The notes beneath the pieces were generated by a model. That model worked only from the letters and a program-made list of their open reading frames with translations, did no database searches and was not told the origin of the DNA. DNA of 64,000 nucleotides, from contig NC_092679.1 of the NCBI RefSeq assembly GCF_964355755.1, forward strand, positions 2,634,201-2,698,200, in the 5' to 3' direction. The position numbers were made by a program, and so were the translations under genes. The stretch's first letter is position 1, and each line of letters starts with the position of its first letter. The stretch is from Antedon mediterranea. Lineage: Eukaryota > Animalia > Echinodermata. Shown in pieces: positions 14,719 to 57,177 of the stretch.

Positions 14719-14939
14719 TTAAGCTGTGGTAGAAGATACGGTGTATTTAACAAACACGTTCATCAGGGCTTAGGTAACTAACAAAATGGCTATTTGCATC
14801 TTGGGTTGTAAACATCAACGTCAAACTACGCCACACGGTTAAGTATGCTAGAACCTTGTGCCTTTCCTTCTCTACCACGACACGCATCTAGCGGCGCAGA
14901 ATTTCTTCAAGTTCTGTGTTTACTAAAGGTTATAGTTTT

Positions 14940-34501: not shown

Positions 34502-34762
34502 CTATGAAATGAATAAACTTGTATAGCAATTGACAGCCACATTAAGCTTCAAGAGAACAAAACATTGGGGTTCAATTTTATTTGCTGGAGCCGGACTGAA
34601 GCAGGTGTGAAAGAGATTTAAATCATGCAGTGTTTTAAATTCGACATGTAATGATTCGGGAGGAAGCATGGCTTCTAATACAATAAAACATTGTGTCCGT
34701 TGTAATTGGTTAATTTGGGTAGTCCGGTTCCCCATACTGGACTTGTGTATTCAATCGCTAAA
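34502..34762 (-). pseudogene. Degenerate non-LTR retrotransposon (CR1/L2-like) ORF2 3' fragment
   Basis: Minus strand translates IEYTSPVWGTGLPK, resembling the post-RT LEY..PVW..GLP motif; frameshifted afterwards. Confidence 0.55.
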
Positions 34763-36579
34763 GGGTCTTTCACACCTGTTCCGGTCCAACATCAATGTTT
34801 CGTTTTCACGACGCTCTACGCAGCTATGCTCCAATCAATGGTCGATTGGATTTAGTTGAACAGGAATACAGTATTAACTTTCCAATGAAAATTCAGGAAT
34901 ACAATTTTATAACACTATTCTAGAGTACTTTTATTAATTAAATTTCAGAAGATGACTAGGCATTGAAATGCGAGAAAACCAATGAATGACATGCAAATTC
35001 TGGTTGTACCGCCTCAGTGGACATCCCTGCATCAAATGTATCTTCAAACTTGCAAATATTTTCATGCAACTTGCTGGAACTGGAAATTTGTATCTCTTCA
35101 CCATGTCGTCGTCAATGTTTGGTCTGTTCTATTCGTCGTCAAGTCAGTCGACTTTTAATAAAACAACAACAACCTAATACTTTTTAGCGCCAAGTTTTGA
35201 CATTTATTTCTTTTTTAAAAATTCGAAATACATGTTTTTTTTTTCTTGTGTAATATTTTTGTTTTCTATTATATTTGTTTTATATTTTGTTCAATAAATT
35301 ATTACAATTTAAAGGATGCTAGACAATGCTGCGAGCCGGACACCCAACCCTAACTCCTTTGGCGCCAAATTTTTTTTTGTAAGGAGGGGGAGGTGCGATT
35401 TCCCAAATGCTCTGACCAGCTAAGGTGTTTTCTCACCTTCTAGCATCCATTACAACCTAACAGAAATCTAAATAAAAATCTAGACAGGCGCCTATAAGGC
35501 CCCACCGGGAAGCGGGGTCCGCTCTTCCTATCAAGTTTTACAGAATGTGTTCCGAACAAATTTAGAAATATGCTTACAAGAATATCTCAAGCTTTTTACT
35601 AATTTACATTATATTAAACCATGAAAAAATATATATATTTAGTATTGACAATTCAATGTGACAATGTCCATAACTTTACAAATTATTTTTCTGAAATACA
35701 TTATGCATAACATTTTTTGGAAAAAGAATGTGTAATTTTCACAATAAAATCTTTAGTTAAATTAGGGATAATTTTTTTAGAAATTTAGTTTTCGATGAAT
35801 AAAAATCAGTTTTAAATTTACATTTAACAATTACTACTGTTTAATGATATAATTTACTATCGATCAAACCTTGCTTTTAACTGATTTAGAATAAAATGAA
35901 ATTTTATACCTGGATTATGCTCTTTTTACATTTTGAAAATATAATTTCAGATTTTGAAATGGCTAAAGAATTTGTGAACCTTTTAAATTAGATATAAACT
36001 AGTGAATAAAATAAAACCATTTAATACCATTTCTTTACATTACTAACTTGTGTTATTAGTTGTTGAATTGCTAACTACATGAAATTAATTATCAATTATT
36101 ACGAATAAAATATCTTTTTTTTTCTAGAATGGTTTTTTTTACACTTCCAGCCAGTGTTAAGTCATAACTACTATTTGTCCGTACAATATTAATTAAATGT
36201 TTCTGAAATACCGGTAAAAACCGAAATTGTTACTTGCACAATTTTCAACAATACTTTTTTTCACATTACAAACCAGTGTTATTAATCACAATTGATATTC
36301 TATAATCTTTTGTTCAAATATTTACAATTTGTAAAAAAAATTAATTTTTGAAATGAAATAATGATTTGACATTTTGTTGTGTACAATTTACAACATTAAA
36401 AAGGTCTGAATGTTTCATTTTCATTTAGTGAAGATAAATATTAAACAATTCGCAATACATGTATCAAGACTATTAATAATCAGGAATTTTACATTAAAAC
36501 TTATGTTGTCAAAGTTATAGAATTTCTACTTTACATAACCTTAAATATTATTATTAACCTTTAGAATTATATACAGTAT

Positions 36580-37020
36580 AATTTATTTGTATTTAAAATT
36601 CATATTTTGAAATAAAGATATTGTATAAAATGGAGTACTTTTTACAGAAAGTTTAAAACATATTTTCAGTTATATACTAATATTTCGCAGCTAAAGTTAT
36701 TCAATGACTATTAGAACTTCTACATTTATTTTTGTAAGTGCACATAAATATATTTACCAAAATATTTTTGTATTTTGAAAACTTGTATTATTTAAAATTC
36801 ATATTTTGAAATAAATGTTATTGTTGTTATTTTATATAAATTAAAAGAAAATACAAAAAGGATTTTTTTAGATACTGAAATTTTACAACATATTTTCAGT
36901 TTGATATTCATATTTCGCAGCTGAAGTAATTAAACAAACTTTAGAATTTTAGTTTTGTAAAGTGCACATAAATATATTTATTTAAAAAAATTTAGGATAC
37001 TTTCTTTAAATTATTTGTAT
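36580..37020. repeat. Diverged ~220-bp tandem duplication
   Basis: TTTAAAATTCATATTTTGAAATAAA...ATATTTCGCAGCT...GTAAGTGCACATAAATATATTTA occurs twice. Confidence 0.7.
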
Positions 37021-37507
37021 TTTAAACGCATGTTATTAGTTATAGAATTTTGTGTACAAATAAACCTTAAGTTTATGTTACTGAAATGAAAATAGGTGTA
37101 TACCTACTAGACTATTGTAAATCAAATTGATGTTCATTAACAGAATAAAAAAACCTTTGTACAATATATTAAAAATAAAAGAGCTAATGAATAAAGTTTT
37201 ACAACAAATATTACAAGTTTAAATTGATAACATTTAAAAATTATAAAATTATTTTTTGTCGAGATTAAATGTTTACTTTTTTGTAAACATTTAGATGTAA
37301 TTAACAAAATTGGTATGAATATATTTATATAATTTGTACTAGATTTGTGTACATTTTTAAATTGTAATTGTAAATCAATAAACATTTTGTAACTATATAA
37401 AATAATACAATTTATAGCTCAAGTGATTCTACATGATAAATATTATTTAAAAATACATGCGACAGTGATAGTAATTGCTAAACCATAATATACCTTTTTA
37501 CTTTTGT

Positions 37508-37645
37508 ATATATTCAATTTTTAGATTTTACAAATTCTTACTTTTTGTGTGTCTAATATTCACAACATATTCAATTTTTAGATTTAACAAATTCTTACTT
37601 TTTGTGTGTCTAATATTCACAACATATTCAATTTTTAGGTTTCAA
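37508..37645. repeat. 57-bp tandem repeat, ~2.3 copies
   Basis: ATATTCAATTTTTAGATTT.ACAAATTCTTACTTTTTGTGTGTCTAATATTCACAAC repeated. Confidence 0.85.
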
Positions 37646-38094
37646 CATACTGTATTTATTTTTTAGATTTTACAACGATGAAACACCTTAATTTCATCAC
37701 ACGATACTATTTCTAAGGCTAAACATTTTACTATAGATTTGTATTTATAATTCAATTTTAACAGATCATTTTTTATATTATATTTTATTGTTATAATATT
37801 TATTTTTTATAGTTTCAACTTTATTATGAACAACTTGTATTAATCTTTTTTCGAACATTTTCATTTATTACCTGTACAGCATGTTTAATTTTTATTTTTG
37901 GTCAATTACTAATTATGTTATGTTATTTTGCGTTTGTCCGTTTATTACCTGTTACAGTGTGTTTAATTTCTATTTCAGATTAATTAAAAATTGTTATTAC
38001 TTTATTTGATTTATTGGTTAAGTTTCAAAAAAATAATTGTAATTTTTAAGCAAGTAAGTTAACCATTTTTTCTATATATATATGTATATGTATA

Positions 38095-38545
38095 TTTACA
38101 AAACCGTAAACCTTTGTGCATCTGTACTTGTTTTTAAATTAATGTAAATTAATGCATTTAAAACTTGTTTTATATACCCGTATTTTGTTTATAACGTAAT
38201 CTACCGACCGACAACCATACAAAATACGTACACAACAATTAATCAGTACAATTTCTACAAAATTTAAATATTTTACAATCGTTTAAAAAGATGTGGCTAT
38301 AGAAACTATTCATTTTCTTTTAACATGTATAGTTACGGCGTAAACCTTCATGCATATCTGTATTTGTTTTTAAATTACCGTAAATTAATGCATTTTAAAC
38401 ATGTTTTATATACCAGTAATCTACCGACCGACAACGAGGCAAACCTACACAATATGTATACAACAATTATCGGTGCAATTTCTACAAAATTTTGTATAAA
38501 TATTTTACAATTACTGTATTTACAAAGAAGTGGCTATTCACAATA
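38095..38545. repeat. ~240-bp tandem duplication
   Basis: CGTAAACCTT...GTAATCTACCGACCGACAAC...CAATTTCTACAAAATTT...GTGGCTAT twice. Confidence 0.75.
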
Positions 38546-38804
38546 TTAACAATGATTTTGGTCCCTTGCATGTTGATGTGACTTGAATGTCTGCTCCCCC
38601 AACCATATTTGGTATTTTCCTATATTAAGAATTATGGGCGGTTTCTTGTTTGATTATGATGGCATAGTCTGGTCCCTGTGATATGTTGGTCTGGTTTTAA
38701 TGATCAACTCCTTGAAGAATACCATTGTCCTAATATTGACACCTAATACGATCATTTCATCTGGAAAATGGGTTCTCCTAAAATACTGCAATTCCCAAGA
38801 TGCA

Positions 38805-39020
38805 TGTCCCTCTTAAACTACTGCAACACATGAAGAAACTGGTCCCTCCTAAACTACCGCAACACCTGAAGAAGCTGGTCCCTCTTAAACTACCGCAACA
38901 CCTGAAGAAGCTTGTCCCTCCTTAACTACCGCAACACCGGAAGAAGCTGGTCCCTTAAATGCCGGATAGTGGTCCCTGAGTCCTAAAATACTGCAACGCC
39001 CAAGAAGTTGGTCCCTTATG
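38805..39020. repeat. ~37-38-bp minisatellite
   Basis: TAAACTACCGCAACACCTGAAGAAGCTGGTCCCTC x4-5, with further GGTCCC units on both sides. Confidence 0.85.
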
Positions 39021-39678
39021 GTAAAGTAGTCCCTGGTCTTTTCACAACACACTGGGTGGTCCCTGTTATCTTTGTCTACACGTTCTTTGCCCTCCTCCCA
39101 TTGGAATCATTGGTCTCGTCTCAAGTACAGTTCCCCATTCCAACCACTCAACACTACAAGGCCATGTTTGGGATGTCACTACTTTCCAAAACCATTCTAG
39201 TACCATTAACCATTACACCAATCCAATTTTTTTTTTGCCAAGAAACCTGAAACTGAACTATGTTACGAGAAAAACAAAACACACAAGGTATATTTGTAAA
39301 CAAAAAAATACTGCTTTTTCACTAGTATCACTCACGGTACTCGATAACCATTTACTTTGCGCGTACATGAAACTTTACAGCATAGGGAAGCACACAAGTA
39401 GTCAAGAGAAAAACGACAATTCACCATACTCCTATCTTGATACCGATTCTATACCTAGTTACCCCAGCTAAGTCACTGTTTTGTTACAAGTCTGAAAATG
39501 AAGGGGAAACAAACAAAAAACACACACAAGAAAGCATGTTGCATATGACAATGTATGGCAATCAAATTACTGTATATACTTATCTTTTATACTAACCAAT
39601 AAAAATGTTCAGAATATAACTTTTATAACACCATTTCTTAAATTTCAACTTCTTCAAATTATTCTTTACACGCCTGTG

Positions 39679-39925
39679 TTTATGTCCCTATCAATTTTGC
39701 CCAGATCTGCCAGATTTCTAACTTCTTTTTCCCAATCAAGTTATGTCCCTAGAAATTTTGCCCACATCTGTTAAGATTTCTCACTTCTTTTTTCAATCAA
39801 GTTATGTCCCTAGAAATTTTGCCAACATCTACCAGATTTCTCGCTTCTTTCTTTAATCAAGTAATGTCCCTAGCAATTTTTCCCCAATCTGCAAGATTTC
39901 TTGCTTCTTTTTTTCAACCAAGTTC
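39679..39925. repeat. ~60-bp tandem repeat x4
   Basis: TTATGTCCCTAGAAATTTTGCCCACATCTG...AGATTTCT..CTTCTTTTT..AATCAAG. Confidence 0.85.
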
Positions 39926-42900
39926 ATAATGTGTACAAGTCCCAATCATTTCACAGATCCTTAACATACACTGCTAAAAAGGCTGCAAATCCCACTCCCC
40001 ATTTCTAAGCAAGGTAGCACGGGTAGTAGCTTCCAAAATACTTTCCCTCCGCCAATTCAGGCTTTTACTTCTTACATTGAGGTTTACCACAAGTTCAAAC
40101 TTCTTCATGCATTTTACCAATGCTCACTTTAGTCCAAATAAATAAAACAAATATGCACACAAATCCAAACCAAATGCTTGCTCTACTGCTGCTAAAAATG
40201 AACACATCTTGCCACTACTAAATGATACATGAAGTGCAGTCAGCGATACAATGCTTTTGATTTCTGAAAAGTGAGCAGAAAAGTATAGTTTGCCCCAAAC
40301 CCCCCTATACGATTGATTTCATGCTGATCTTGTGACAATAATAAATAATTATTAATCCATGCGAACACAAGGATACAATTGTTTAGCGGTTATTACAAAC
40401 GATTATCATACCTGTTATTATTAAGAAGAAACCATTTGAAATATATACAGTGGTGCTATCCTTATCGGATTCTACAGCAATGCTGTGAGAAGACATCGCA
40501 AAGCTAATTGTATTATAGTAGATTGTTCAAACATATAGTGTTATTATCTGGAAGTACAGAATAAGAAACAAAATCCCTCCGCATACACCCAATGATATGT
40601 ATATCAAATACAGTGCTAACAAAATGAAAAACGAGTTATTATCTAAAGCAGTAACCAAAAGGTTGGGTTAATTTAGGATGAAAACAAAAAATAAACACAC
40701 GCAAATGATACAATGTTTTTTGCAAAACTAGCAACGCTTTTCAGAAAGTAATCGGCCAATGTAATTAAACAAAATGTTCAGTGTTGTAACACCTAAAGCC
40801 ATAAATCGTTAAAAAGGTAGATGATTAAGAACTAAAAGTACAAGCAACTCACAGTTGATACTCATGTTAGTTTGCGATAGTAGTAGTAGTAGTAGTGATG
40901 GAAGAAAGCTTCAAATGTGCTTGGTTCTTTTGACTATAGAGTTATACAATGTGTAGATAGATATATCTGGCAGTAGGTGGTGGAAATGTCATTTTCTAAC
41001 AGCACAGACAGGCAGGTTTTGTCACCTGAAGAGCAAAAATGAACTAAAACAAGCCCACCCCTCATGCAACAAGTTTATGGTAAAACAAACACTAAATTAA
41101 ATTGAAAATCAAGAAACCATGAAATTAAAACACATTGTGCAAATTATAGGTTCTATCCAAGATTATGATATACAATACAAAAGTTCTTTTGGTAAATACA
41201 AACTACTGTTTTTATATACACGCACGAAAAAAAAAACACGAAGTATTTGTTTGAAGGGGAAAACTCACAGTTATGGAAATCAAACGCTTGAAAATCACTG
41301 AAAATGTCTTGCTCAAAACCATAAACCCTTGGCAACCTACATAACACAAATACAAAAAGATTCCACCCACATTCCCTACAGCCAACCCCATTAAAATTCT
41401 TACAAATTACTGACAAAACCAATATATATGTTCAAACTAGTAAGTAAAATACAGTATACCTTTTTTCATCCGCGTTTATTTCTGACAAACACCAACAATA
41501 AATTGGTCATCGCTTTTATTTAACAAAGCTGTAGTAAGCTCCAAAGAGAGGAGAAATTCACCAAAAATAATAGGTCTTGATAATCTCTGAAGAATATCTT
41601 TCTCGCACCATTAAATCTTGTTAACCTACATAACACAAATATAAAAAAATTCCACCCACGTACCCTACAGCCAACCCCATTAGAGTTCTTACAAATTACT
41701 AACGAAACCAATATGGTAGCATTAACATAGTAAATTAAACAATTTATCATTACATATACCTTTTTGCGTCTGCGTTTATTTACGAATTCATACACCGATA
41801 GAAATGCCGGTTTGATTACGATTTTGTCCTGTAGGATATAAAAAAATACAAACTCCCTCTCCCAAAATATTTACAACACTTTCAATGGTTAGGATGAAAA
41901 CATACAAGTTTGCTTACATACAAAATGTGAAATATCTGTGCCACATCAACTTGGTTCTTTTTCAATTCGTTGTATGCAACTGTCCACAAACCTATATGGA
42001 GAAACTAACAGAAACCAACCCGTTTTTTACACTCCCAACCCCGTTATTGCACAACATTTTATGCTAAATACAGTACATTACAAAATGTTACCTTTATGCA
42101 AGTTGAAACAATTCATGCATATACCTTTCATTATGGATTGTTCTTCTTGAACTACGACTATAACGCGTAAAACTGACAAACTACCGCAACACTTGCATTT
42201 TGAAACCTGTGTAAACACAAGATAAAAAGGAAAGGGAAAGAAAAAAAAAAAACACGGCGATATCTCCTAGAACCAAACGACGACTTCAGAACAGAGTCTT
42301 CTCAATTTCCAATGATTTCCCAATGATAGCCAACTTATACAACACCACACCTCATGTTTCGTTTAATACTCCAGGGACGTAATCGCTCAACGACTTAGAT
42401 CTGTAAAATTTTGAGAAAAAAACCCACATCCCCAACAGCCTACCCATGGTTATGTTTAAATACAAAATATTTACTGGCGAATACGTAATTTAAAACGACC
42501 TATTCCTACTTGCAACACTACTTGCGAATCTTCTATCATAATTCCTACTTTTCCATACCGTAGTACTCGCTCACTTTCTTGCAATTTAGTATTAAGCGGT
42601 GTCGAAGCTTTTTGTACGTTGAGAAAATAATTTGTTATGAAAATGCTACCGAGATAAAAGATAATCATTTTATTACGCTCCCCACCCCATCACAAACAAC
42701 GAAAAACAACTAGACAAATCACATCTATCGACTTCCTTTGAACCTTACTTGAAAAACCTGAACTTGAGGAGACTTGGATGTTCAGAACTTTCTTAATCAT
42801 TACCAAGATAGCGGTTTTACAGACGACATAAAGTTCAACCTGTATAGCGACAAAAATATAAAAAAAATATTCCCCAAACCCATTTCCCTTGTGTTGATGT

Positions 42901-44754
42901 ACAGTATTAATGAATAACTGTTACTGTTGATAATTTCAAATTTGCATGGATATTGAAAACCTGTAGATAATATGGGAAAGAAAAAACAAACAAACAAACA
43001 AAACAAACAAGTCTTCTTGGGTCCCACTACAATCAACACCTCATCCTAATACACCATTCCAACATCAGAAAAGTTAATCTTGCAATAGGTACTACTACAC
43101 TGCTGCAATGGGTACATCTCTATGAAAACAAAGACATATAATTGTCTCCCGCCCTCCCCGATGCTTCGACAACAATTAAACTTGAAAAACCATCTAATTT
43201 GCAAACTTGAGGCTTACTTGATACTTCTAATCTATGAACTTGTTAAAAGATCTTGCTTAATGGAATCACTCGCACACAAACTCATCAAGTTTTCCAAAGC
43301 CGGTGTGGACGACATGTTTAAGTGTATTCAACTTGAAATTCAAATCTAAATAACACTGGAAAAAGAGAAAAAAGGAACCAACCCACTTCCCAACAGCCAA
43401 CCCTCATTTTATGAAACTTTAAATTAAACAAATCCATTTTACTTAATACAGTACATATCTTATGCTACTGGGTGGGCACACTTGCCTTTTTTCCCCTTCA
43501 CACTTTACTATTTCTGTAAGCAACACAAGACTTTCTTCCTACGAAGATGAAATATCCAAACCTAGACAAGAAACAAACACAACCAACCCATTTTCCCAAC
43601 AGCCAACCCTCTCGAGTAAAGTTCAACCCAAATTTTATGCCTTTTTAAAAAATAACCTACTGGTTTTAGGAACAGTTTCAAACTTGAATGGCAGGAGTTG
43701 GAACCTGTAGAAAATACAAAGAGAAAAAAAACCAAACTGCGACCGTTAACCATTTGCATCCCGAGAAGCTTGGTAAACCATTTTATGGCAGATTGATAGA
43801 GTAGCAGATTCAAATGCTCTTGTAACTTGAACAAATTCTTCACTAGAAGCTATTTAAAAAAGAACAGACAAAAATCATTGTTCCCCACCCTCCCTCAAAG
43901 ATTCACTACGAAAACAAAAACATGCACAAACTCCAATCCAAGGCTTACTTGAAATCTATGTACTGTACACTCGCGCATTTAGTTTGTAGACTTGATTGAT
44001 ATCTTCACACTGTTTCCAACACACCCAAGGTCTCTTTTACAAACTTCAATGAGAGGGTTTTTTTTTAACCTAATATCAAAATGGAGATAAAAAAGAAAAC
44101 TAGCTCCCCACATCCCAATTTTCACCATTCGGTTTGAAACTGTAGATACATACATTATCTTTTGGCTTACGCAACAACGTTTACTCGACTCGCCCGGCTT
44201 TTATCTTGAAAACTTTTCATTCACGTAAAGTTTACTTGGTCAGAATAAGGTACAAGCTGTTTAACAATACAAGGAAACACGATGACCGCTACTATCAACG
44301 ACCTGAATAGTAGAAATCGGAAGATAGAAAAAAAAGAACCAACCCACTACCCCAACAACCAACCCTTTCTTTGTTAACATTTACTCTACTGTACAAAATT
44401 TAACACAAAAAACATGCCTCTTGCATGCACCAAAATACATAAAACAAATTAACTTCCAATTAATAAAACATATGACTATAGTTCTCTGGTTCTTATCAAT
44501 TATTTTAATTTCTTCTTTGCGACATAAATTATGTTATCTGAATTAAGACTCTTACCACGTGGGATGTCATGCCGGTAATTAGCCACGGTGAAAACCAATT
44601 TAGTTACGATTTAATAGTCAGGAATTTGAAGTAGAAAAAAAAATAAACAACCAAGATACTTATGTTTGAGAAGAATCCAGATTGGTCAACTTGTTTGAAA
44701 TATCGGTACGCATGGATTGGTAAGCTTTTCCAGAAAGACCGGTAACTTGTTTAA

Positions 44755-44960
44755 AGATTGGTACACTTGTTTTGAAAAGGTTGGTACACGAAAAGGTTGG
44801 TACACTTGTTTTGAAAAGGTTGGTACACGAAAAGGTTGGTACACTTGTTTTGAAAAGGTTGGTACACTTGTTTTGAAAAGGTTGGTACACTTGTTTTGAA
44901 AAGGTTGGTACACTTGTTTTGAAAAGGTTGGTACACTTGTTTTGAAAGATTGGTGAACTT
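44755..44960. repeat. 23-bp minisatellite with 16-bp variant
   Basis: GGTTGGTACACTTGTTTTGAAAA x~7 interspersed with GGTTGGTACACGAAAA x2. Confidence 0.92.
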
Positions 44961-46679
44961 GTCCGAAAACATGGGCTGCTAGGCTCGGTAACCTGCTGAA
45001 TTTGTAAGGCCGTTCACACTTAGTACCTGCTGAATCACCCCTGACAACCATGACTTGCAGGAATCTCGACTAAAAAGGCTAATGTTGCAGCTAGCTAGCT
45101 TGGCAATATTTTCCACTGGTGGGATATCCTAAATAGATAAAAAAACAGATTTTTCCCCACCCTCCCCAATATACTTTATGACAAACAATATCGATATTAC
45201 AATTAGCTCTACTTCTCTTACCCAATATCCAAAACTTAACCAGATGTTTTTAAATGTTCCAATTGAGTATCAGTACTTTCCATTTAGGGGTATAATAGAC
45301 GAGTCATACAATTTAGACACTCCCTCTCTCTATGGTATAGGTTCTAACTAAACCGGTTTCCGACGAATTTTTTAAAGCGCCTTCTTTCCGGGTTAAAAAG
45401 CTGTGACAAATCATCTACAAGGGGAAAACAAAGATGTTATTCGCCCACCCCACCCATTTACAAAATTACACGCAATAATAACGGAAACTTATTTTTAAAT
45501 CTATGTAAAATTCATTTTCGAGACTTATCTTTAAACTATTGAATCTTCTTCCATGTTCATGACACTTGTCAACTACCTACAACTAAGGTAAAAGAAATTG
45601 GTTATAACCCCCCGAACCCGTAATAAAAAATGTTACATTACTCTATACATTATGATTTAAACTTCGATTGACTAGTAGGTTTTCTGTAAAGGCTACTGTA
45701 CTGTCCTTAGGGTAAATAGTTGAATCCTCCAATTATAAATTATTAAAATATCTGCTTCTCGCGTTCTTGGCCCACTGGTTATTGGAAATTCCTAAATAAA
45801 AAATGAAAGATTATAATAGTAACACTGTACGATTTTTATCCAACTAGAACAATTTCAATTATTTTTGTCACATCCACGGTTCTTATCAATTGTAGGATTA
45901 CATTAAATAAAAAAATATGTTCAATGTTACAGATGAAAATAAACTAGGGCCTGGGCCTAAAAAAACAGTTATTATACTGTATGTAGGCCTCCTAGATTAG
46001 CCTTAGGCGACAAAAAACCAAGCATATAAACAGGTTAGGCTACTACCATGCCTTTTAAATATTCAAAATACACTGATAAAAAAACACAATTTAGGCTAAA
46101 TCGAAATACAATTTGAAAAACAACAGACTTCGTTGTTAATTTACCTGTCAATACATTGGGAATGTTCTTCGTCGATTTGCAATCAAAAGAAAACGTTACT
46201 TCAATAAAATCAATTCATTATTCGGCAACAAAAAATAGGATGGAACAAATCATGCCCATGGACATTGCAGACACAATTTCATCTTCAAAAAATAACCACT
46301 ATTTTCTCTTTCAGTTCCAACAATTTCTCCATGAAGTTGCTAAAATGCGACAGCACATAATCCTACATATCTCAAGAGCCAACAAAATAAAGCAAAACTG
46401 GTCTACAGATGGTAAAGATACCACTCGACGCCATTTTGAACTTCAGAATCTTCATCCCACAAAAACGATTAAATTTACTGCCTAAAACTAATTATTTAAC
46501 TAATTACTTGCTATAAGATTAATATTTACATATTACTTTATAAGAATTAATGAAAAATATGATCTAATATCACAACGAGCTCACAGTTTTTAGACGACTA
46601 CGAAAAGAATCAGACAACAATGAATGCGTTTCCAGACCACAACTAAACACAAGCATATTCAACGAATCCTAACAACGTT

Positions 46680-47100
46680 AACATGACGCTTTCTAATCGC
46701 CCACTCCTTTATATAGTAGCGTCTACCCTATCACTACCGTATCCATCCGACTAATCAAATAGTTCACCACACGGTAAAATTTTACCAAACTTACAAACAT
46801 TTTCAGTTAGTTTTATGACTCTAAACAAATATGACTTATTTTGTTATTAAATTGTTATAATAAATATTAGGTAATAAAATAATAATGCAAATAAATTGGC
46901 TACGCCTTGGCGGAATGTTATGTGATTATGCAAATTTTATCCGCCGGACGTTGGTGGAAACGTGTTGGATCAAGGAACGTTTGTATTAAACATGACGTCA
47001 TCATATATTATTGTCAACATCAAGGATCGATTTAGTTATTGCAAATAATTACGTCACAATGTCGCAACGTCATGTAACCACCAAAACACACGTCATTACA
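46680..47100 (-). promoter_or_regulatory. Pol II promoter: TATA + octamer + CRE/ATF cluster
   Basis: Minus-strand TATATAAAGG at 46706-46715; ATGCAAAT at 46885 and 46928; TGACGTCA at 46993, TTACGTCA at 47049, ACGTCA at 47067 and 47090. Confidence 0.6.
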
Positions 47101-48589
47101 TAGGTGATATTTTTAAACAACAATTACAGTAATACAGTTTTTGCATGAAAATTCTAGAAAATGTGAATGCTATTGATTGAGACTTGTAGGAATTGCTATA
47201 TAAATACCATGATAATACTTCTTTTTTTTTTACAAAAATAACCCTATCTATAATTATATTATATCCAGTTTAAATCGTTTATTCTGTTCAGGAGATAAAG
47301 TAATGTGTTTTTCTTTTAGACTTATACTGCCTTTTAATTAAATTGTTAAATTACTATTGTTAATGGGTATATATAATTTAATAGTAAAAAAAGTATACAT
47401 GTTTTATACTAGTAGTAGCAATATATATTTTTTTAAATAGTCAAAGACCCTAAATATCGCTAAAATTACATTACATTATTTGATCTTAAAATAACCAGGG
47501 AATAGTGTGTCATACCGTTTTCAACATAATCAATGTTAATTTCATGTTTAAAAGCATGTTGGGTATTTCCAAATTTGGTTTACCATTAATTACTGTAGGC
47601 CAATCAGCAAAGGAAATAGCAAAAATGACATAAATTTGTCTGTATATCAAATTTGGCAGTAAAGTCATTAATGTCCTGGCTTCAAATACAAACGGAAGAA
47701 GAATAATGTTTTAATGAAAAATGATTGACATTGAAGGAAATTATGACAAACTGTCTATTTCCCTTTCCGTCTAAGACGTGTGTTTTATTTTTGTGAAAGT
47801 TGTGAAAAAATATTCTATACTAGATATTATACACCAATAAAAATAATTATGTAAATTGCAAAACCAGATAAAACCAGTTCGAAGTTTTTTATTTTAGCAA
47901 GATGATCTATATCACATTTTAATAACTACAGTATATAATACAGAGTTTTCTGCATTTGGCTGGCACTATGATAGGAAGCTATGCAGCCTAAATGACGACA
48001 CTAATATGGAGGTGCTAATGGGGGTACCCTCACTCACCTTCATTTGTTTACAGGTGGCATAACATAATGGGTTATTGTGTAAAAATAATACATTGTTGTA
48101 TGTCCAAACAAAGTGATTCATACAATTTAGCAACGCCCTTTGAGTGGGAGGGCATGTGAAGATGGTCTATTACATTTTGTCAACATTTGTTTAAATCTAT
48201 TAATAATCATTGGTATAACCAGGGATCTCCCTGGTATAACAAATAATTTCATTTTACTAAATTCATGGCTAAATGATAAGCCTGAACACATATGATGAAC
48301 ATAATTCTGAAGAGAAACTATTTAATGGTTAATTCCATTTTTCATTAAAATGTCAACAAACACAAACATGTAATTCAATCAATGTTACGATATACAGTTC
48401 ACGGTGCCGACTGTGATGTAGTAAAATGCTCTTTTATTACATTAACAGCGAGAAACTGAAAACACAAAAAGCATAATTCAGCATAAGCTAGTGTATTAAC
48501 CAAACAACATGTTGTGTACCACACGCCCAGGGTATCATGTAGTCACTCCCTTGATGCTGATAAGATTATTACATTAAATACAGTAGCTT

Positions 48590-49035
48590 CAGACATCATC
48601 CCTGGGTATGATGTAGTCCCTGGATATCACAGTAAATAACTTGTACCAGACATTACCCTGAGTAGAATGTAGTCCCTGGATATTAGGATCACAGTAAATA
48701 ACTTGTACCAGACATTAAACCTGGGTAAAATGTAGTCCTTGGATATTAGGATCACAGTAAATAACTTGTACCAGACATCATCCCATTAAACCTGGGTAGA
48801 ATGTTAGTCCGACTCCCTGGATATTAGGATCACAGTAAATAGCTTGTACCAGACACCATCCCTGGGTAGAATGTAGTCCCTGGATATTTGGATCACAGTA
48901 ATACTAGCTTGGACCAGACATCATCCCTCGATATAATGTAAGTCCCTGGATATTGGGATCACAGTAAATAGGTTATGTACCAGCCATCATCCATGGATAT
49001 AATATAGTCCCTGGATATTTGGGTCACAGTAGTAG
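48590..49035. repeat. ~60-bp minisatellite x~7
   Basis: CAGACATCATCCCTGGGTAGAATGTAGTCCCTGGATATTAGGATCACAGTAAATAACTTGTAC tandem units. Confidence 0.9.
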
Positions 49036-49336
49036 TAAATACCTTATCTTGATATGACAGACAGCCAATCTTTATCAATACAGTAGTACTAGTATGATAG
49101 TTATGGAGGTCCTTCATAATCTTTGTATTGATCAGTTGGTCCAAAGTTAAAAAGGTGATGACCATCAGACGAAGGTAATACGCTGACCTTGACCATCAAG
49201 ATGATAATGAGTTCACCTTCACCATCAAGATGTCTTGAATTCCAACCAGAAAATACCTTGACCATCAAGATGTCATGAATTCAAACTAGAAATGGTTTTT
49301 TTTGTCTTGCATTATTGTGCCACTTTTTAAATGTAA

Positions 49337-49449
49337 AGCTCTGTCTACACTGTCAAACTAGTTTGAAAAAAAAAAATGTGATGTACCCAAATGGAAATAC
49401 AGTACCCCAAATATGGTAATATGGTATGGTGATATGACATCATCATGTC
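49337..49449. mobile_element. MITE family A, left half (interrupted by LTR element)
   Basis: Starts with TIR AGCTCTGTCTACAC and stops at CATCATGTC; continues at 57120. Confidence 0.85.
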
Positions 49450-50563
49450 TGTACAGAAAAGGTCGGACGACTACACACAGGTTAGCAAATGAGTAGATAT
49501 ACCACGGGAATAAGTTTGAGATGAATCTGTTTATTAAACGTCTCATTCAATTCTACAAATAAATACAGAAAAGAATCATAAACAACCTTTAACCTTATAC
49601 CATAGCATATAACCTCAATAATCATTTACAAATCTCCATACCAACATTCAATCATAAATAAACTGTTAAAAGCATAATCAAATATAAACAATACTAAGTA
49701 TTAAAATACAGATACAATAATGTTTCTCATACACTTGTCATTAATGTTCTTGGTAACTTTCATCATAATACCACATTTTACATAGATTTTAACATGACTC
49801 ACAACTTTGCCGGGCATAAATACTTCCAGATTATACAGCGTACAGTTTCTACAGTTACGTTCTCAGGTTAGCAAAAGCACATGAATAACTCCATAGCCTA
49901 AAACAATATAATTATATTCATTATGTATCAATATCCCTGCTTAACTCATACGTATAAACAAACCTCCATTCAGAACAAAAAGCAACTCTGATCTATAAAT
50001 AATGTTAACCTACAGCAAAGTTAAGTCGACGCGAGGTCAGATACGAATCACTCATGCGTGACGGATCAAATTCAGAGTGAACATTCTTATGCAACCGGTC
50101 TATACCTAGAAATTCTAAGTTACATACATAGCATCTAAAGAATCAACATTATCATGTGAACCAATATATCGGATACTAAATTTAGCCTAAATATATTTTA
50201 GGAATATTACAAAATGTTTCGGTCTATCATCATAACAACCTTGTCTTATATAGTCTACCGTATCACTCAAAATGGCGGCTACCACGATGCAGCACATGTT
50301 CAAGATAAATCTCATAATTAAAGGCAAAATATCGTAACTATGACTAAACAAATAGTATCACATAAATATAATAAACTTACATTTATCATTGTAATTTACA
50401 CAAGCAATCGTACGGAACAGATCACGGAAATATAGACGGAATTTCCGGACAGCTCAATTACACATGTCTACAGTAACTCGACTATAGCTGAACTGTACCA
50501 CACAACCGTAGGTGGCAGCAAATATTACTCGATCGTATATAAGATTATCGCAATAATCCTACA
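49450..50563 (-). repeat. 3' LTR (1114 bp)
   Basis: Direct repeat of 56006-57119; no difference found by eye. Confidence 0.96.
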
Positions 50564-50765
50564 CTCCCCCCGATAATGAGGAAATCTCATTATAACAAAA
50601 CATTTATAACATTTCAAAAGATCAACTAAATAAAGGCAACTACATGATACAAATACAATATCTCTAAACTAAGCAAGTCGTGTATTAAACTTAAACAGAT
50701 TAATAATTTAATACAAAGAAACTAATCCATCTTAGCTCAGCTGTGATACTTCAATACAGTATAGC

Positions 50766-53700
50766 TTAATGCTTCCATTCCTCCAGTTTGATCAATTTTA
50801 CGACTGGACGTTTGTATACCTTTTCTTTCATTTTCACATCCGCTACCCTTACTCGTCCATCTGCACTGGGATGAACTTTCAGTACTTCTCCTGTTAACCA
50901 ATCTCCTCTCTGTGCTTGGTTGTCAACAACTAACACCTGGTCACCCTCCTTCAAGTTTTCTGTCTCTTTATCCCATTTCTGTCTGATTTGTTGACTTGGT
51001 AAATATTCCGATACAAACTTTTTCCAAAATAAGTCAATGATAAGCTGACTATGGCGCCATTGCTTCTTGCTTTTGATTTCTTGAGGACTGACTAATGAAA
51101 ATGGTAAAGATGGGTCACGCCTACCCATTAACAGAACATTCGGAGTAACCGGATCAGCATCGGAAACATTGGATGATGCATAACCCAGCGGCTTTGAGTT
51201 CATTAGGCCTTCCACTTCAACTATCACTGTCTGCAACACAACTTCCGTTACTACTCGATCTTTCAAGGAACACTTAATGGCATTCTTCACCGACTTAACC
51301 TCTCTTTCCCAGACGCCTCCGAAGTGTGGTGCGTTGGGAGGATTAAATTTAAACTCTACCTGTTGTTGTGCTAGTTTCTCTTGCAAAGCTGGGCTCATAG
51401 CCTTGAAGCACTCATGCAATTCTCTTTCCGCTCCCCTGAAGTTTGTTCCACAATCGGAGTACAATTCCTTCGGGACTCCTTTGCGAGACACGAATCGTCT
51501 AAACGCCATGATAAAAGCATCTGTATTCATGTTATGAAGAATCTCCAAATGAACTGCCTTAGTCGTCATACACTTAAAAACTAATCCCCATCGTTTTTCT
51601 TGGGATCTTCTAACCTTCACCATCATAGGACCCCAACAGTCCATTCCAGTAGAAAAAAATGGTGGTTTACCAATTCTTAGTCTAGCTTCTGGAAGTTCTG
51701 CCATCTTAGGGGTTTCTGGTCCCTTCCTCCATTTCTGACATTCAATGCATTTACTTAATTCAGACTTGATTTGGCTTCTTCCCTTTAGGATCCAGTACTT
51801 TCTTCTTAAGTACGCGAAAACTTGATTAGGTCCTGCGCTGTGATTGAATACATTAGCATCCGCCCTTCTAATTAGCAATTTGGTGATGCGATGTTTCGGA
51901 TCCAATAGTATTGGGTGAACATCCAAGTCTATTTTCTCTACATTTCTAAGCCGTCCTCCTACTCTGATCACTTCATTCTCTGCTTCCAACATAGGATCCA
52001 AGTTACATATACGGCTATTACTCTGGACACCTTTACCATTTCGAAGCAATTGTAATTCCTCTGCGAAACATTCTCTTTGTACCCTTCGCAAAAGTAGTAA
52101 CTCAATGTCCCTGACTTTATAGACATCCAGTGCTGGTGAATCATCACCATAGATTCTCCTTCTATAGACTTCCAACATTTCTTCCCACGTTTCACAGTTA
52201 TCAATCTCCACCTCCGGTCTCACTTGCTTTATCTCTACATTTCCAGTAAATTTTACAAGCTTTATTTCACTGTCATCGTCTTCCACTCTCAAATTCTCTT
52301 GTTCCCACTCATGCATTGGACTCTGCAGGAATGGCGGCCCTCTTATCCATCTTCCATTTAAGTTTGTCACTGGAATTCCCCTAGAAACATCGTCAGCCGG
52401 GTTTTCCACTCCGGACACGTGTCTCCAATTCTCAGGTTTCGTTTTGTTCTGTATTTCCAGTACTCTCGTACCTACAAATTGCTTATAGCAGCATGATGGC
52501 TTTTTTAACCAACCCAACACTATCATGCTGTCTGTGAAGAACAATACATCTGTTAATGGCAGCGATGATTCATCAGTTATAGATTTACCCATTCTAGCAG
52601 CCATAACTGCGGCTTGTAACTCTAGTCTTGGGATGGTCAACTTTTTTAGCGGTGCCACTCGAGACTTTGCAGTAACGAATCTTGTTTTGAATAAACCATC
52701 CTGCAGTCTCCATCTCAGGTAAGCACAGGCCCCATACGCCTTTTCAGATGCATCACAGAAAATTATCAATTGCGCGTCAGTAGAATTATCCGGAGTCAGA
52801 CATCTTGGCAGCTTGATTTCACTTGCATTGTTGAGTTCTTTTAGTAATATTCTCCATTCTTGTTGAGTTTCATTAGGCAGGTCTTCATCCCAGTTAACAC
52901 CTGACTTCCATAGTTCTTGCATCTTTATTTTCAGCTTCACAACCACTGGCGCCAAAAATCCAATTGGATCGAAAACTTGCGCAATCATACCCAACGCCTT
53001 TCTCTTTGTTACTACTGCATTCGTAATGTCATCATCTAGCTTCACCTTAACCTTCAGTGTATCATCCGCGTAGTTCCATGAGACACCCAGAACCTTTTGT
53101 TCCTTATCTTTTCTTTCTTCATTGTTTAGCGGTTTGTTTGATATCCATTCTTTGATATTAAATCCTCCGTTGCCTAACACGGCATCCATCTGTTTGGTTA
53201 GGGTTTTCGCCTCTTCGATCGTTGTCACCGAAACACATATGTCATCCATGTACGTCTCGTTCTTCAACACATGCGCAGCTCTTGGATACATTTCCTCACC
53301 CTCTTTGGCGGTTAACCTGAGAGCAGTTTGCGCCATCGCCGCAGCTGGCTTATCCCCAAATGTCAACACTTGCATAACATAGGTATCAGGATCTCGATCA
53401 GAATTAAGATCTCGCCACAAGTATCTGTGTACGTGCTGGTCCATTTCTGGTATCAGCACTCGGTGGTACATCTTTGAAATGTCCCCACAGACAGCAACTT
53501 CTCTTTCACGAAACCGCATCAGCACCCCACTCAGATTGTTCAATAGATCTGGACCTTTCATCCAGTACTCATTGATCGCTTCCCCCTGGCATCGGTTTGC
53601 CGAGTTGAATACAATCCTCACGGGTGTACTCTTATTTTCAGCCCTGACTACCGCATGATGTGGTAAGTAATGAACAGGTCCCTGATATAATTTCATTTCC

Positions 53701-54092
53701 GTATTGTTTAATTTGCGAGAAAATCCTTTTTTGACCATTTCCTCCATTTGTTTTTGGTAAGCCGCACCATGCTCCTTATTCTTCTTCAACCTTTTCTCTA
53801 AACCATTTAGCATTTTAATTGCTTGGCCTCTGTTGTTGGGAAGTTGAGATGGATCTTTCGCCCATGGATAGGGAATCAACCACTGATTGCCAACTTTCGA
53901 ACTAGAGTCTTCAATTAGTTTCCCTTCCATGTCTTCTACTGCGCTAAGTCTTGCCTTACACTCACAATTTCCAACATCGACACCCATCGCTTCAACGGAC
54001 CAAAAGTTGTCTAAATTGACTGGTTTGCTTACTTTCACATTCATAACCTGGTTAAACCTTGCATCCTTCTGGTACCACCAAATACAGCCCAT
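50766..54092 (-). CDS. BEL/Pao Pol (RT, RNase H, integrase); its own ATG probably not used
   Basis: YLPHHAV, KGPDLLN, DISKMY, YMDD, FCDASEKAYG, IPRLELQAA, NPADDVSRG, GMDCWGP, YSDCGTNF, GGVWEREVKSVK. Confidence 0.95.
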   Translation of the reverse strand: MGCIWWYQKDARFNQVMNVKVSKPVNLDNFWSVEAMGVDVGNCECKARLSAVEDMEGKLIEDSSSKVGNQWLIPYPWAKDPSQLPNNRGQAIKMLNGLEKRLKKNKEHGAAYQKQMEEMVKKGFSRKLNNTEMKLYQGPVHYLPHHAVVRAENKSTPVRIVFNSANRCQGEAINEYWMKGPDLLNNLSGVLMRFREREVAVCGDISKMYHRVLIPEMDQHVHRYLWRDLNSDRDPDTYVMQVLTFGDKPAAAMAQTALRLTAKEGEEMYPRAAHVLKNETYMDDICVSVTTIEEAKTLTKQMDAVLGNGGFNIKEWISNKPLNNEERKDKEQKVLGVSWNYADDTLKVKVKLDDDITNAVVTKRKALGMIAQVFDPIGFLAPVVVKLKIKMQELWKSGVNWDEDLPNETQQEWRILLKELNNASEIKLPRCLTPDNSTDAQLIIFCDASEKAYGACAYLRWRLQDGLFKTRFVTAKSRVAPLKKLTIPRLELQAAVMAARMGKSITDESSLPLTDVLFFTDSMIVLGWLKKPSCCYKQFVGTRVLEIQNKTKPENWRHVSGVENPADDVSRGIPVTNLNGRWIRGPPFLQSPMHEWEQENLRVEDDDSEIKLVKFTGNVEIKQVRPEVEIDNCETWEEMLEVYRRRIYGDDSPALDVYKVRDIELLLLRRVQRECFAEELQLLRNGKGVQSNSRICNLDPMLEAENEVIRVGGRLRNVEKIDLDVHPILLDPKHRITKLLIRRADANVFNHSAGPNQVFAYLRRKYWILKGRSQIKSELSKCIECQKWRKGPETPKMAELPEARLRIGKPPFFSTGMDCWGPMMVKVRRSQEKRWGLVFKCMTTKAVHLEILHNMNTDAFIMAFRRFVSRKGVPKELYSDCGTNFRGAERELHECFKAMSPALQEKLAQQQVEFKFNPPNAPHFGGVWEREVKSVKNAIKCSLKDRVVTEVVLQTVIVEVEGLMNSKPLGYASSNVSDADPVTPNVLLMGRRDPSLPFSLVSPQEIKSKKQWRHSQLIIDLFWKKFVSEYLPSQQIRQKWDKETENLKEGDQVLVVDNQAQRGDWLTGEVLKVHPSADGRVRVADVKMKEKVYKRPVVKLIKLEEWKH

Positions 54093-55969
54093 CCCAATGG
54101 CGTCTTCAATGCCACTAGGCCATTAGTCTTCTTGGTTTCTCCGGTCATCAAATAGGCATGATCGACTCCAATTAAGATGTCTATCGGCCCACCTCGTCTT
54201 CTCAGAGTATTCTTCATATTAAAAAATTTCTCTAAATTTTTTATGTTGACACTGTTCACATCGTTGATGGTCAGCATTTCTAAGGCTTTGATGTTGTGAA
54301 CAGACGAATCCATTCCCTGCAACTTTATTTCACACAACCGTGACTCGAAGATTTCTTCCACGCCTCCTACTTTGGTTATTGCTGCAGCCACACTCTTTCC
54401 ACCAATCCCCAATTTGTTGGCGAAATCCGTTCTCACAAAAGTTCCCTGTGACCCAAGATCCAGCATAACGTTTGCCACATGACTCCCATTTTTCCCAATC
54501 ACTTCTACGTCTAGAACACACAGCAAAGGCTCCTTATCACCAATAACACTCACATGGCCGACACCAGCTTTCTTTGTTAAATGAAGAAGTTTGTGGTGAT
54601 ACCTGTTACAGTTGTTCTCGCCCATCTTTTCTCCACATACCTTTTTTCTTGAGCAATTACTCAGCCGATGGTTGCGTCCTGCTATCTTGAGGCAGGAAAA
54701 GCATGCATGATTAGATTTTGCCAGCTCGAATCGATCTTCTACTTTCATCTGGCTAAACTTCTCACACTCATCTGGCCAATGTGCATCAGACTTGCATATC
54801 CAGCACTTTGGAAACTTCTCTTTTGCAGAACTCTGTGAAGGAACTGAAGCATTAACGTTATTTACCTGGCGTTTCTTCTGTCTCGACTGTTGAACTTCAG
54901 CCGTAGCGTTGGTAGTGTTCCCAAACACTGGATCATTGATCTCCTTTGCCGATGCTTTGACAAACTTCACCACATCACTTAAGCCAGGTACAACTCCCTT
55001 TTCCTTCAGCTTGTAATTCGCTCCTTGCCATCGGTTCTGCAGGAATCTCGGCAACTTATCAATTATCTGCTTTAGACTACTCTGATTGTTAAGTTCATTA
55101 AGAAAACCTAAAGCTAACAGTGCTTCATGGCAGTTCTCCAGATCATCCGCAAAGTCGCCTAGCTTAGATGCATCAATTTTGGGCCGGTCCAATACTTTCC
55201 CAATCCATGCTTGCACAATAACGGCTGTGTTACCATATCTGTCTTTAAGAGTTTTGCAAGCTGATTGGTACCCTTCATTAGGGGGCTTCAATACACAATA
55301 CTGGATCGATTGTAACGCCTTGCCAGCGCACAAAGACATTAAAGTGTTTAACTTTACCTTGTCTTCTGGAATACCAGAGACAGTATTATTAAAGGAAGTA
55401 ATAAATGCATGGTAATACAGTGGATCGCCTTCGTACTGCCTTATTGGAGTCTGTGGCAAAGTTAATGCTTTAAACAGACTTACTAAAGTGTTATCTACGT
55501 TAGATACACCAGTACCACCACCACTAGAATCAGATGTATTATCTACATTATTAGACACATCATCGGATACACTAACATTAGGTATATTTTCTATCGGTAC
55601 ACTATCAGACACATTATTTGTTACATTACTTATAAGTACATCATCAGATTCATTATCTATAGATACGTTCTCTTGGATTACCTCATCCCTTGTTACTTCA
55701 AATCTTGCCATTGCGGTCATGAATTGATCCTGGCAGTGATTCATCCACTCTTGTTCTGTCTCGTATTCCTCTTCATCTTTTATCTTTTCGACCAAACTGT
55801 CATGGGACTCTTCTACAAGCTCAAACCGCGTCTTTGCTTTTGCCTTCGCAGTGGAAATCTCCGCTTCAGAAGCTTTCCTTTCCATTAAATGTGATAACTC
55901 GTTTATCACCCTCGTGAGGTTCCCCTTCCGGTTCCTCCTGTTTATCCGCAGTTGGTCAATCGTAGCCAT
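54041..55969 (-). CDS. BEL/Pao Gag plus aspartic protease
   Basis: Three Cys/His knuckles (CWIC..H..C, CFSC..H..C, C..C...HHKLLH), protease MLDLGS, DILIGVD, TPLGWAVFG. Confidence 0.93.
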   Translation of the reverse strand: MATIDQLRINRRNRKGNLTRVINELSHLMERKASEAEISTAKAKAKTRFELVEESHDSLVEKIKDEEEYETEQEWMNHCQDQFMTAMARFEVTRDEVIQENVSIDNESDDVLISNVTNNVSDSVPIENIPNVSVSDDVSNNVDNTSDSSGGGTGVSNVDNTLVSLFKALTLPQTPIRQYEGDPLYYHAFITSFNNTVSGIPEDKVKLNTLMSLCAGKALQSIQYCVLKPPNEGYQSACKTLKDRYGNTAVIVQAWIGKVLDRPKIDASKLGDFADDLENCHEALLALGFLNELNNQSSLKQIIDKLPRFLQNRWQGANYKLKEKGVVPGLSDVVKFVKASAKEINDPVFGNTTNATAEVQQSRQKKRQVNNVNASVPSQSSAKEKFPKCWICKSDAHWPDECEKFSQMKVEDRFELAKSNHACFSCLKIAGRNHRLSNCSRKKVCGEKMGENNCNRYHHKLLHLTKKAGVGHVSVIGDKEPLLCVLDVEVIGKNGSHVANVMLDLGSQGTFVRTDFANKLGIGGKSVAAAITKVGGVEEIFESRLCEIKLQGMDSSVHNIKALEMLTINDVNSVNIKNLEKFFNMKNTLRRRGGPIDILIGVDHAYLMTGETKKTNGLVALKTPLGWAVFGGTRRMQGLTRL

Positions 55970-56005
55970 CGTTGCTCTTCTCTGGTTAGCAGCAGTTAAT
56001 TGAAT

Positions 56006-57119
56006 TGTACAGAAAAGGTCGGACGACTACACACAGGTTAGCAAATGAGTAGATATACCACGGGAATAAGTTTGAGATGAATCTGTTTATTAAACGTCTC
56101 ATTCAATTCTACAAATAAATACAGAAAAGAATCATAAACAACCTTTAACCTTATACCATAGCATATAACCTCAATAATCATTTACAAATCTCCATACCAA
56201 CATTCAATCATAAATAAACTGTTAAAAGCATAATCAAATATAAACAATACTAAGTATTAAAATACAGATACAATAATGTTTCTCATACACTTGTCATTAA
56301 TGTTCTTGGTAACTTTCATCATAATACCACATTTTACATAGATTTTAACATGACTCACAACTTTGCCGGGCATAAATACTTCCAGATTATACAGCGTACA
56401 GTTTCTACAGTTACGTTCTCAGGTTAGCAAAAGCACATGAATAACTCCATAGCCTAAAACAATATAATTATATTCATTATGTATCAATATCCCTGCTTAA
56501 CTCATACGTATAAACAAACCTCCATTCAGAACAAAAAGCAACTCTGATCTATAAATAATGTTAACCTACAGCAAAGTTAAGTCGACGCGAGGTCAGATAC
56601 GAATCACTCATGCGTGACGGATCAAATTCAGAGTGAACATTCTTATGCAACCGGTCTATACCTAGAAATTCTAAGTTACATACATAGCATCTAAAGAATC
56701 AACATTATCATGTGAACCAATATATCGGATACTAAATTTAGCCTAAATATATTTTAGGAATATTACAAAATGTTTCGGTCTATCATCATAACAACCTTGT
56801 CTTATATAGTCTACCGTATCACTCAAAATGGCGGCTACCACGATGCAGCACATGTTCAAGATAAATCTCATAATTAAAGGCAAAATATCGTAACTATGAC
56901 TAAACAAATAGTATCACATAAATATAATAAACTTACATTTATCATTGTAATTTACACAAGCAATCGTACGGAACAGATCACGGAAATATAGACGGAATTT
57001 CCGGACAGCTCAATTACACATGTCTACAGTAACTCGACTATAGCTGAACTGTACCACACAACCGTAGGTGGCAGCAAATATTACTCGATCGTATATAAGA
57101 TTATCGCAATAATCCTACA
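56006..57119 (-). repeat. 5' LTR (1114 bp)
   Basis: Direct repeat of 49450-50563; contains TATA-like TATATAAG (~56801-56808, minus) and a YY1-like CAAAATGGCGGC. Confidence 0.96.
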
Positions 57120-57177
57120 ATGTCCATATATGGGCACATCAAATTTTTATGTCACAAAAAGTTTCATAGACAGAGCT
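57120..57177. mobile_element. MITE family A, right half
   Basis: ATGTCCATATATGGGCACATC...AGACAGAGCT-TTA completes the element begun at 49337. Confidence 0.85.

Follow-up and report, generated by a model that had tools for sequence, protein, structure and literature searches.

The window studied here, a 64,000-nucleotide stretch of contig NC_092679.1 from the crinoid (feather star) Antedon mediterranea, carries on its minus strand a long noncoding RNA (lncRNA) unit whose body is studded with sites resembling 3′ splice acceptors. The unit is a real noncoding transcription unit that is likely highly transcribed, the contig depth reported below being no measure of expression. We tentatively favor the reading that it yields an abundant RNA of ~8.7 kb that is spliced once, in which modules of G-runs, a pyrimidine tract, and an AG would serve as decoy acceptors and as docks for heterogeneous nuclear ribonucleoproteins (hnRNPs) F/H, with the RNA held in the nucleus. 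This reading is drawn from the lack of a protein frame, the single-copy locus, the loss of one intron, and the retention of ~20 acceptor-like sites. The G-run clusters that precede the unused acceptors and the extension of the unit to ~37600 are points that go beyond the first-pass annotation of this DNA.

Transcription and Splicing of the Unit

Five sequencing runs cover the stretch, none of which is recorded as RNA; four of them, X1–X4, were analyzed. X1 is presumed to be RNA and was treated as such because it contains a canonical splice joint absent from X2–X4 and because its depth steps up at the promoter. Contig depth in X1 is 1,471–2,294 over 46657–40093 and ~1,100–2,800 down to 37610, with values outside the unit of 5–11 at 47001–49000 and 12.4 at 34741–34915. 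Cover begins at 46657, with none above that position in the same bin, and the bin means of 653.2 and 677.2 match zero cover within the intron and above 46657 exactly. Two joints are listed in X1. One is a 32-nt gap with AA..AA ends, which is probably an allele, and the other is a 353-nt skip with CT..AC ends, as expected for a minus-strand GT-AG intron. The start of cover and this joint bear out the earlier proposal of a minus-strand noncoding unit beginning just below a TATA box.

That proposal also held that the unit is densely spliced into about 20 or more exons, and it named 25 acceptors. This part is not supported. The dominant X1 contigs keep every resolvable intron-like segment except the first, and the only splice seen removes 46144–45792. 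Of the 25 named acceptors, 20 lie within five long contigs (722–1336 nt) that run across them unbroken and extend 31 nt or more to either side; one acceptor (45792) is used, and the remaining four (42401, 42207, 39492, and 39247) lie outside the listed pieces, which exclude 573 shorter ones. Among the 19 modules described below, 17 are read through unspliced. The unspliced path dominates in the X1 sample, a statement that does not extend to splicing never occurring.

Upstream of the unit, the promoter described in the first-pass annotation, with a TATA box, two octamers, and four sites resembling the cyclic AMP response element (CRE), was recovered as described there (Table 1). The full CRE (TGACGTCA, 47000–46993) is the only one in the window. 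At the opposite end, X1 contig depth falls from 1125 at ~37610–38046 to 149 at 36869–37552, and a cluster of AATAAA signals lies nearby. Together these features give a weak hint that the main RNA is ~8.7 kb long and ends near 37630, the low cover at 36350–37550 being used as no more than such a hint. Copy number was judged from sequencing-run depth. In runs X2–X4 the depth is flat from one flank of the unit to the other, which makes this a single-copy locus.

An Array of G-Run Acceptor Modules

All 25 acceptors named earlier have an AG in place (43704 is actually 43705), most of them with a pyrimidine tract. Sites with a pyrimidine tract and YAG (Py-YAG sites) number 32 on the minus strand of 39000–46700, as compared to 12 on the plus strand and 12.0 ± 3.2 in 500 dinucleotide shuffles (maximum 23). 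With a hand-set weight matrix of greater stringency, the counts are 13 on the minus strand, 2.7 in shuffled sequence, and none on the plus strand. The acceptors are therefore enriched on the minus strand only, above composition-matched shuffles, as the first reading had implied.

A module was defined as a Py-YAG site with at least two GGG runs 18–65 nt upstream of the AG. This filter retains 18 of the 32 sites versus 0.55 ± 0.75 in 500 shuffles (maximum 3), and elsewhere in the window two of 182 comparable sites carry G-run clusters. One further site, 42646, misses the filter and has the same layout by eye, which brings the total to 19. The array also holds 11 of the window's 12 minus-strand clusters of three G-runs and 16 of 22 G4Hunter peaks; a search of the unit for canonical four-run G-quadruplexes found none. 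Two module subtypes recur, and among copies of one subtype only a 40–50-nt core of G-run and tract aligns. Module cores are kept amid spacers that have diverged past alignment. A metagenome scan with the module motif gave 23 single matches on contigs of 41–64% GC, none with more than two modules per strand, which is chance level.

Comparison with Host Introns and Proposed Mechanism

As a control for acceptors of this genome, we used 14 introns from neighboring genes: 12 from CCT4, which was rebuilt such that its joined exons are open for 492 codons, and two with FAM161A acceptors, one FAM161A donor being probably mislocated (score −6.0). A search for the host's XPO1 protein, intended to widen this control, gave no match. 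At least two G-runs are found at none of the 14 host acceptors. The mean number of A residues in −45..−19 is 9.5 for host acceptors versus 5.0 for modules, and TNAY occurs in the branch zone of 12 of 14 host acceptors versus eight of 18 modules (Fisher p 0.028). Pyrimidine content is alike (host, 14.0; modules, 15.1). The used acceptor 45792 is of the host type, with no G-run and with 11 A and three TNAY in its branch zone. Occlusion of the tract by G-U pairing was considered as a cause of silencing and dropped, the difference in predicted pairing being nonsignificant.

These observations allow us to propose a mechanism. Driven by the observed CRE and octamer cluster, RNA polymerase II would start ~30 nt downstream of the TATA box. 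The intron 46144–45792, whose acceptor is host-like, is removed in the X1 contigs; the modules downstream, which combine a good tract and YAG with G-runs in place of an A-rich branch zone, are read through in 17 of 19 cases. At these modules, the tract and AG may recruit U2AF, but U2 loading would be blocked, either by hnRNP F/H-type proteins bound to the G-runs or simply by a poor branch site, and spliceosomes would stall early, as vertebrate work suggests. Decoy exons are reported to be poorly spliced themselves while they bind U2AF1/2 and favor the nuclear retention of introns (PMC6097662), and single-stranded G-tracts are described as bound by hnRNP F (excerpt of PMC4081105). Each molecule would carry ~20 docks in addition to its UAGGGA/AGGGAC repeats, so that the RNA may be retained in the nucleus and serve splicing factors as a multivalent scaffold or as a sink, its level possibly tuned through CRE-driven induction; transcription may end at the AATAAA cluster near 37630. 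The first-pass suggestion of a splicing-dependent regulatory RNA comes close to this scheme, with the difference that splicing would matter here by failing rather than by being completed.

Several points weigh against the decoy-scaffold reading. The A-poor, G-rich contrast with host acceptors is partly circular, modules having been selected on G-runs, and predicted tract pairing is 0.53 for modules versus 0.42 for host acceptors (p 0.087). Read-through extends to three acceptors that lack G-runs (46482, 43705, and 42961) and so cannot be caused by G-runs alone. In short vertebrate introns, G-triplets located near the intron ends usually promote splicing. X1 differences, at least 21 of which are listed in the long contigs, show no sign of constraint: modules, which make up 664 of the 2826 covered nt, hold seven of the 21, and none falls in G-runs or AG versus 0.8 expected. 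The splicing evidence comes from one run of one study, in the form of contigs from which rare variants are dropped and for which strand, ends, and expression level are not given, and minor spliced isoforms may escape them. Donor-like sites, GTAAG or AG/GTA, lie 89–148 nt upstream of 11 of the 19 modules (e.g., caa/GTAAGC at 43948 and 43217). True host donors are often equally weak, and the modules could thus be genuine short introns.

Alternative Explanations

These last two points form the core of the main alternative, which we consider possible though unlikely. In a regulated multiexon lncRNA, the modules would end real introns of ~100 nt with G-triplet enhancers, detained in this sample and spliced in another tissue, stage, or stimulus. 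Donor-like sites precede 11 of the 19 modules as described above, weak donors are normal in CCT4, and the acceptors match host quality in tract and YAG. However, X1 contains no second joint, such G clusters are absent from the host introns in the window, and 11 of 12 CCT4 introns are longer, at 182–630 nt. The six matching donors named in the first-pass annotation do exist (46144 reads GTAAAT, not GTAAAA), but donors in the unit are neither enriched (14 versus 12.4 ± 3.4 shuffled, several being GGG/GTGGG inside G clusters) nor significantly placed: positions 85–140 nt upstream of modules are at chance with a generic matrix (p 0.16) and with one built from the 14 host donors (p 0.11).

Stalled splicing could instead mark a long unspliced RNA for small-RNA production, making the unit a precursor of PIWI-interacting RNAs (piRNAs) or endogenous small interfering RNAs (siRNAs). 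We judge this improbable. The RNA is free of open reading frames (ORFs), single-copy, and one-stranded, and excerpts of PMC7782496 describe long unspliced transcripts as marking mouse pachytene piRNA clusters and link suppressed splicing to piRNA and siRNA production. Yet the unit is below the 10-kb mark and is spliced near its 5′ end, the opposite of the model in those excerpts, and a within-window comparison found no similarity between it and the Bel/Pao element or the family of miniature inverted-repeat transposable elements (MITEs) described below.

The array may also be a neutral byproduct, in which old tandem duplications downstream of a strong promoter multiplied an intron-exon unit and the modules have no role. 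A recent duplication inside the array (41287–41481/41576–41781), several tandem repeats, and the lack of visible constraint in the few polymorphisms are consistent with this idea. It is nevertheless quite improbable: module cores persist where spacers no longer align, the same layout is reached by at least two subtypes, and AATAAA is scarce in the sense strand of the unit body (four versus 14 antisense) while clustered at its end (nine versus zero).

Coding capacity bears on a fourth explanation, a decayed multiexon protein gene, i.e., a transcribed pseudogene with surviving splice signals. As claimed earlier, the putative exons 44171–44302 and 41460–41625 have stops in all three frames, and no credible protein emerges from the region. 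The 16 ORFs of 81–148 codons (37137–46485) match no Pfam family at the curated cutoff, and the longest ATG frame, 121 aa versus a shuffled mean of 70 ± 16, lies inside a 23-nt tandem repeat. The exon/intron-like spacing and the 11 of 25 hypothetical exons that keep an open frame would fit a pseudogene, but a hypothetical fully spliced product has 106–135 stops per frame, acceptors are intact where exons are not, and the G clusters are unlike host coding introns. A pseudogene is thus very unlikely.

RNAs without ORFs and with many short introns are typical small-RNA hosts, so that intronic small nucleolar RNAs (snoRNAs), microRNAs, or mirtrons have to be considered. The point in favor is one long, irregular minus-strand hairpin at 43120–43001 (z −3.5), which is the best of the unit's folds that contain GC. 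Against it, Rfam gave no match at gathering and only two chance matches at E ≤ 5, three settings plus ARAGORN gave nothing credible, and a C/D snoRNA scan gave two candidates, neither with an intact C box. The mean folding z over 293 windows of the unit is +0.44, and the intron-like segments are not excised in X1, leaving a small-RNA host gene extremely unlikely. Finally, the first-pass idea of a mobile-element cargo transcript, for which a complete Bel/Pao element on the same strand 2.3 kb upstream could be cited, is barely credible, because the unit lies outside both long terminal repeats (LTRs) of that element, has single-copy depth in X2–X4 and no terminal repeats of its own in the within-window comparison, and is separated from it by a stretch where X1 depth is 5–11.

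Features of the Unit and Its Surroundings

The coordinates of the unit's features are collected in Table 1.

Table 1. Features of the lncRNA unit and its promoter (positions in the window)
Feature	Position	Strand	Basis or remark
Four CRE-like sites, cluster	46993..47095	−	TGACGT at 47095, 47072, 47056, plus full CRE
Octamer/near-octamer/CCAAT cluster	46885..47046	−	Motif scan
Near-octamer ATTTGCAA	47046	−	Motif scan
Two octamers ATTTGCAT	46935, 46892	−	Motif scan
CCAAT	46899	−	Motif scan
TATA box TATATAA	46715–46709	−	Motif scan
Putative initiator A	46684	−	31 nt downstream of TATA; start site itself inferred
Exon 1, about 540 nt	46145..46684	−	Contains many short upstream ORFs, and a donor (46584) and an acceptor (46482) that go unused
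Sole intron seen spliced, 353 nt, GT..AG	45792..46144	−	X1 joint 45790/46144, depth 1470.6, absent from X2–X4
Array of 19 G-run + pyrimidine tract + AG modules	40264..45650	−	18 by filter, one by eye; median spacing 262 nt
Module AGs, first part	45583, 45415, 45129, 44303, 44070, 43850, 43562, 43356, 43120	−	Filter
Module AGs, rest	42840, 42646, 42401, 41992, 41829, 41626, 41337, 41026, 40548, 40264	−	Filter; 42646 by eye
G-run-free acceptors within array	43705, 42961, 42207	−	Sequence scan
23-nt tandem repeat, ~10 copies	44753..44962	.	Gives longest ORF
61-nt tandem repeat ×4	39680..39924	−	UAGGGA in each copy; repeat scan
36-nt tandem repeat with degenerate AGGGAC-rich flanks	38560..39070	−	Repeat scan
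Poly(A)-signal cluster	37640..38030	−	Nine AATAAA minus versus zero plus

The UAGGGA of the 61-nt repeat is presumably an hnRNP A1-type motif. AGGGAC occurs 15 times on the minus strand of the unit versus once on the plus strand, and for GGAC followed by A, C, or U the counts are 25 on the sense strand and one on the antisense. GGGAC also forms the core of tandem repeats outside the unit (48590–49031 and 57741–58067), so the motif is not unique to the lncRNA.

Around and beyond the AATAAA cluster, 35600–38300 is a 2.7-kb stretch of ~20% GC with several degenerate tandem duplications, in which AATAAA is plus-biased below 37640 (13 versus 3). A second rise in X1 lies at 36140–36350 (bin mean 6,134; contig from 36353, 185), just 5′ of a minus-strand A-tract. 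Farther on, 35250–35610 is very deep in X1 (bin mean 77,999; 165,591 summed over four contigs at 35369) and single-copy in X2–X4. This GC-richer island holds a domain of 135 nt with a closing stem of 10 bp (z −2.2 on the minus and −2.6 on the plus strand), along with an A9/U9 loop for which a length variant exists; it has no Rfam match, and the fold of 35310–35535 is not tRNA-like. The island may represent an abundant RNA of its own, ~300 nt long, or else the stable 3′ remnant of a longer isoform. Telomerase RNA was not adopted for 35310–35535 (AACCCTAAC on the plus strand), which by eye, and without a feather-star telomerase RNA sequence for comparison, shows no P1.1, pseudoknot, or H/ACA layout of the kind given in PMC4712671.

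Leftward of the unit lie CCT4, FAM161A, XPO1, and a C2H2 zinc-finger gene on the plus strand, the frame at 5844–7883 matching the FAM161A protein of A. mediterranea at 100%. The names CCT4 and XPO1 come from Pfam families together with recognition of the sequence. Within 300–29500, CCT4 and FAM161A are arranged head to head, followed by XPO1, and the three presumably also adjoin on human 2p15. This shared neighborhood suggests old microsynteny and offers a possible anchor for orthologues of the lncRNA. The unit sits between the zinc-finger side and the Bel/Pao element on its right, and is part of neither. That element (49450–57119) is complete, with two long open frames and LTRs of 1114 bp each at 49450–50563 and 56006–57119 that are 100% identical; LTR depth in the runs other than X1 is a few times single copy. 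Its insertion target was a copy of the local MITE, the halves of which remain at 49332–49449 and 57120–57183. This palindromic family of ~150 bp has at least 15 copies in the window, including 8468–8633, 10964–11114, 14573–14722, 16940–17092, 19520–19690, 26666–26815, and 27710–27884.

Relation to Known Systems

G-tracts at a 3′ splice site reportedly lower its use in the system known as REPA-G (PMC4320613, PMC6339879). There the G-tract lies between the pyrimidine tract and the AG, whereas the G-runs here occupy the branch-point zone upstream of the tract. Decoy exons such as those of SF3B1 intron 4 provide a closer parallel, as poorly spliced acceptors that are U2AF-bound and keep the RNA unspliced and nuclear (PMC6097662, in the portion available). 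The sites described here likewise have the acceptor consensus yet are rarely spliced, with 20 of 25 read through in the dominant X1 contigs. The decoys in that source are a few cassettes within a long intron of a coding gene, whereas ~20 sites form the body of a noncoding RNA in the present case.

By layout and proposed function, the nearest likeness is to hsr-omega of Drosophila; no sequence link is expected. The available parts of 10.1101/695486 and PMC5750707 describe a single locus with one 5′ intron, no long ORF, and distal tandem repeats, in which short motifs kept amid diverged sequence are proposed as hnRNP landing sites. The hsr-omega repeat is 280 bp with a nonamer; the repeated unit here is an acceptor look-alike with G-runs. 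Architectural RNAs contain repeated sequence units, and this RNA has 19 modules and three tandem arrays. By analogy, the unit likely works as hsr-omega and architectural RNAs generally do. It is a candidate for the class as defined in PMC5750707, whose members build a body that dissolves when the RNA is depleted. Stimulus-induced expression is a further trait considered for the class; on this point the data comprise four CRE-like sites and a single RNA-like run.

MALAT1 and NEAT1 resemble the unit in being long, highly covered, noncoding, and rich in G-tracts (PMC10869381 and PMC12941219, in part), and U2AF2 is listed among the proteins on MALAT1 intervals in an excerpt of PMC13370960. The same partial accounts describe them as intronless, ending in a triple helix and tRNA-like element, and reported from jawed vertebrates only, being absent even from lampreys. 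Here, in contrast, a 353-nt GT-AG intron is removed in X1, and the 3′ region has the AATAAA cluster at 37640–38030 and no Rfam or ARAGORN match. Membership of the MALAT1/NEAT1 family was ruled out on the intron, the missing triple-helix and tRNA-like matches, and the jawed-vertebrate range. A bolder proposal is that the unit is an independent echinoderm counterpart, in which a highly abundant RNA made of ~20 disabled 3′ splice sites would seed a nuclear body of its own and form a CRE-controlled buffer of U2AF and hnRNP F/H that tunes splicing genome-wide. We regard this as unlikely, if still worth entertaining.

Among echinoderms, sea urchin eggs contain nontranslatable poly(A) RNAs (Calzone 1988; Ruzdijic and Pederson 1987, both as cited in PMC6146417) that are also long, noncoding, pre-mRNA-like, and U1-linked. 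As described there, they are cytoplasmic, maternal, and repeat-interspersed, and it is by this description that they are set apart from the present RNA. In mammals, flies, and fission yeast, lncRNAs that are abundant and of the scaffold type are on record (PMC5750707). Our literature search, which left most subscription journals and the database annotation of the locus outside it, found no such lncRNA for crinoids and no account of this locus or of an lncRNA built from an acceptor array.

If the RNA is indeed nuclear and binds early splicing factors, it would mean that such an RNA can be built from tandem decoy acceptors. Each molecule would then offer a natural test set of one used and ~20 unused acceptors that differ mainly in the content of the branch-point zone. 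If its introns are instead spliced on cue, the same locus would provide a compact model of coordinated intron detention.

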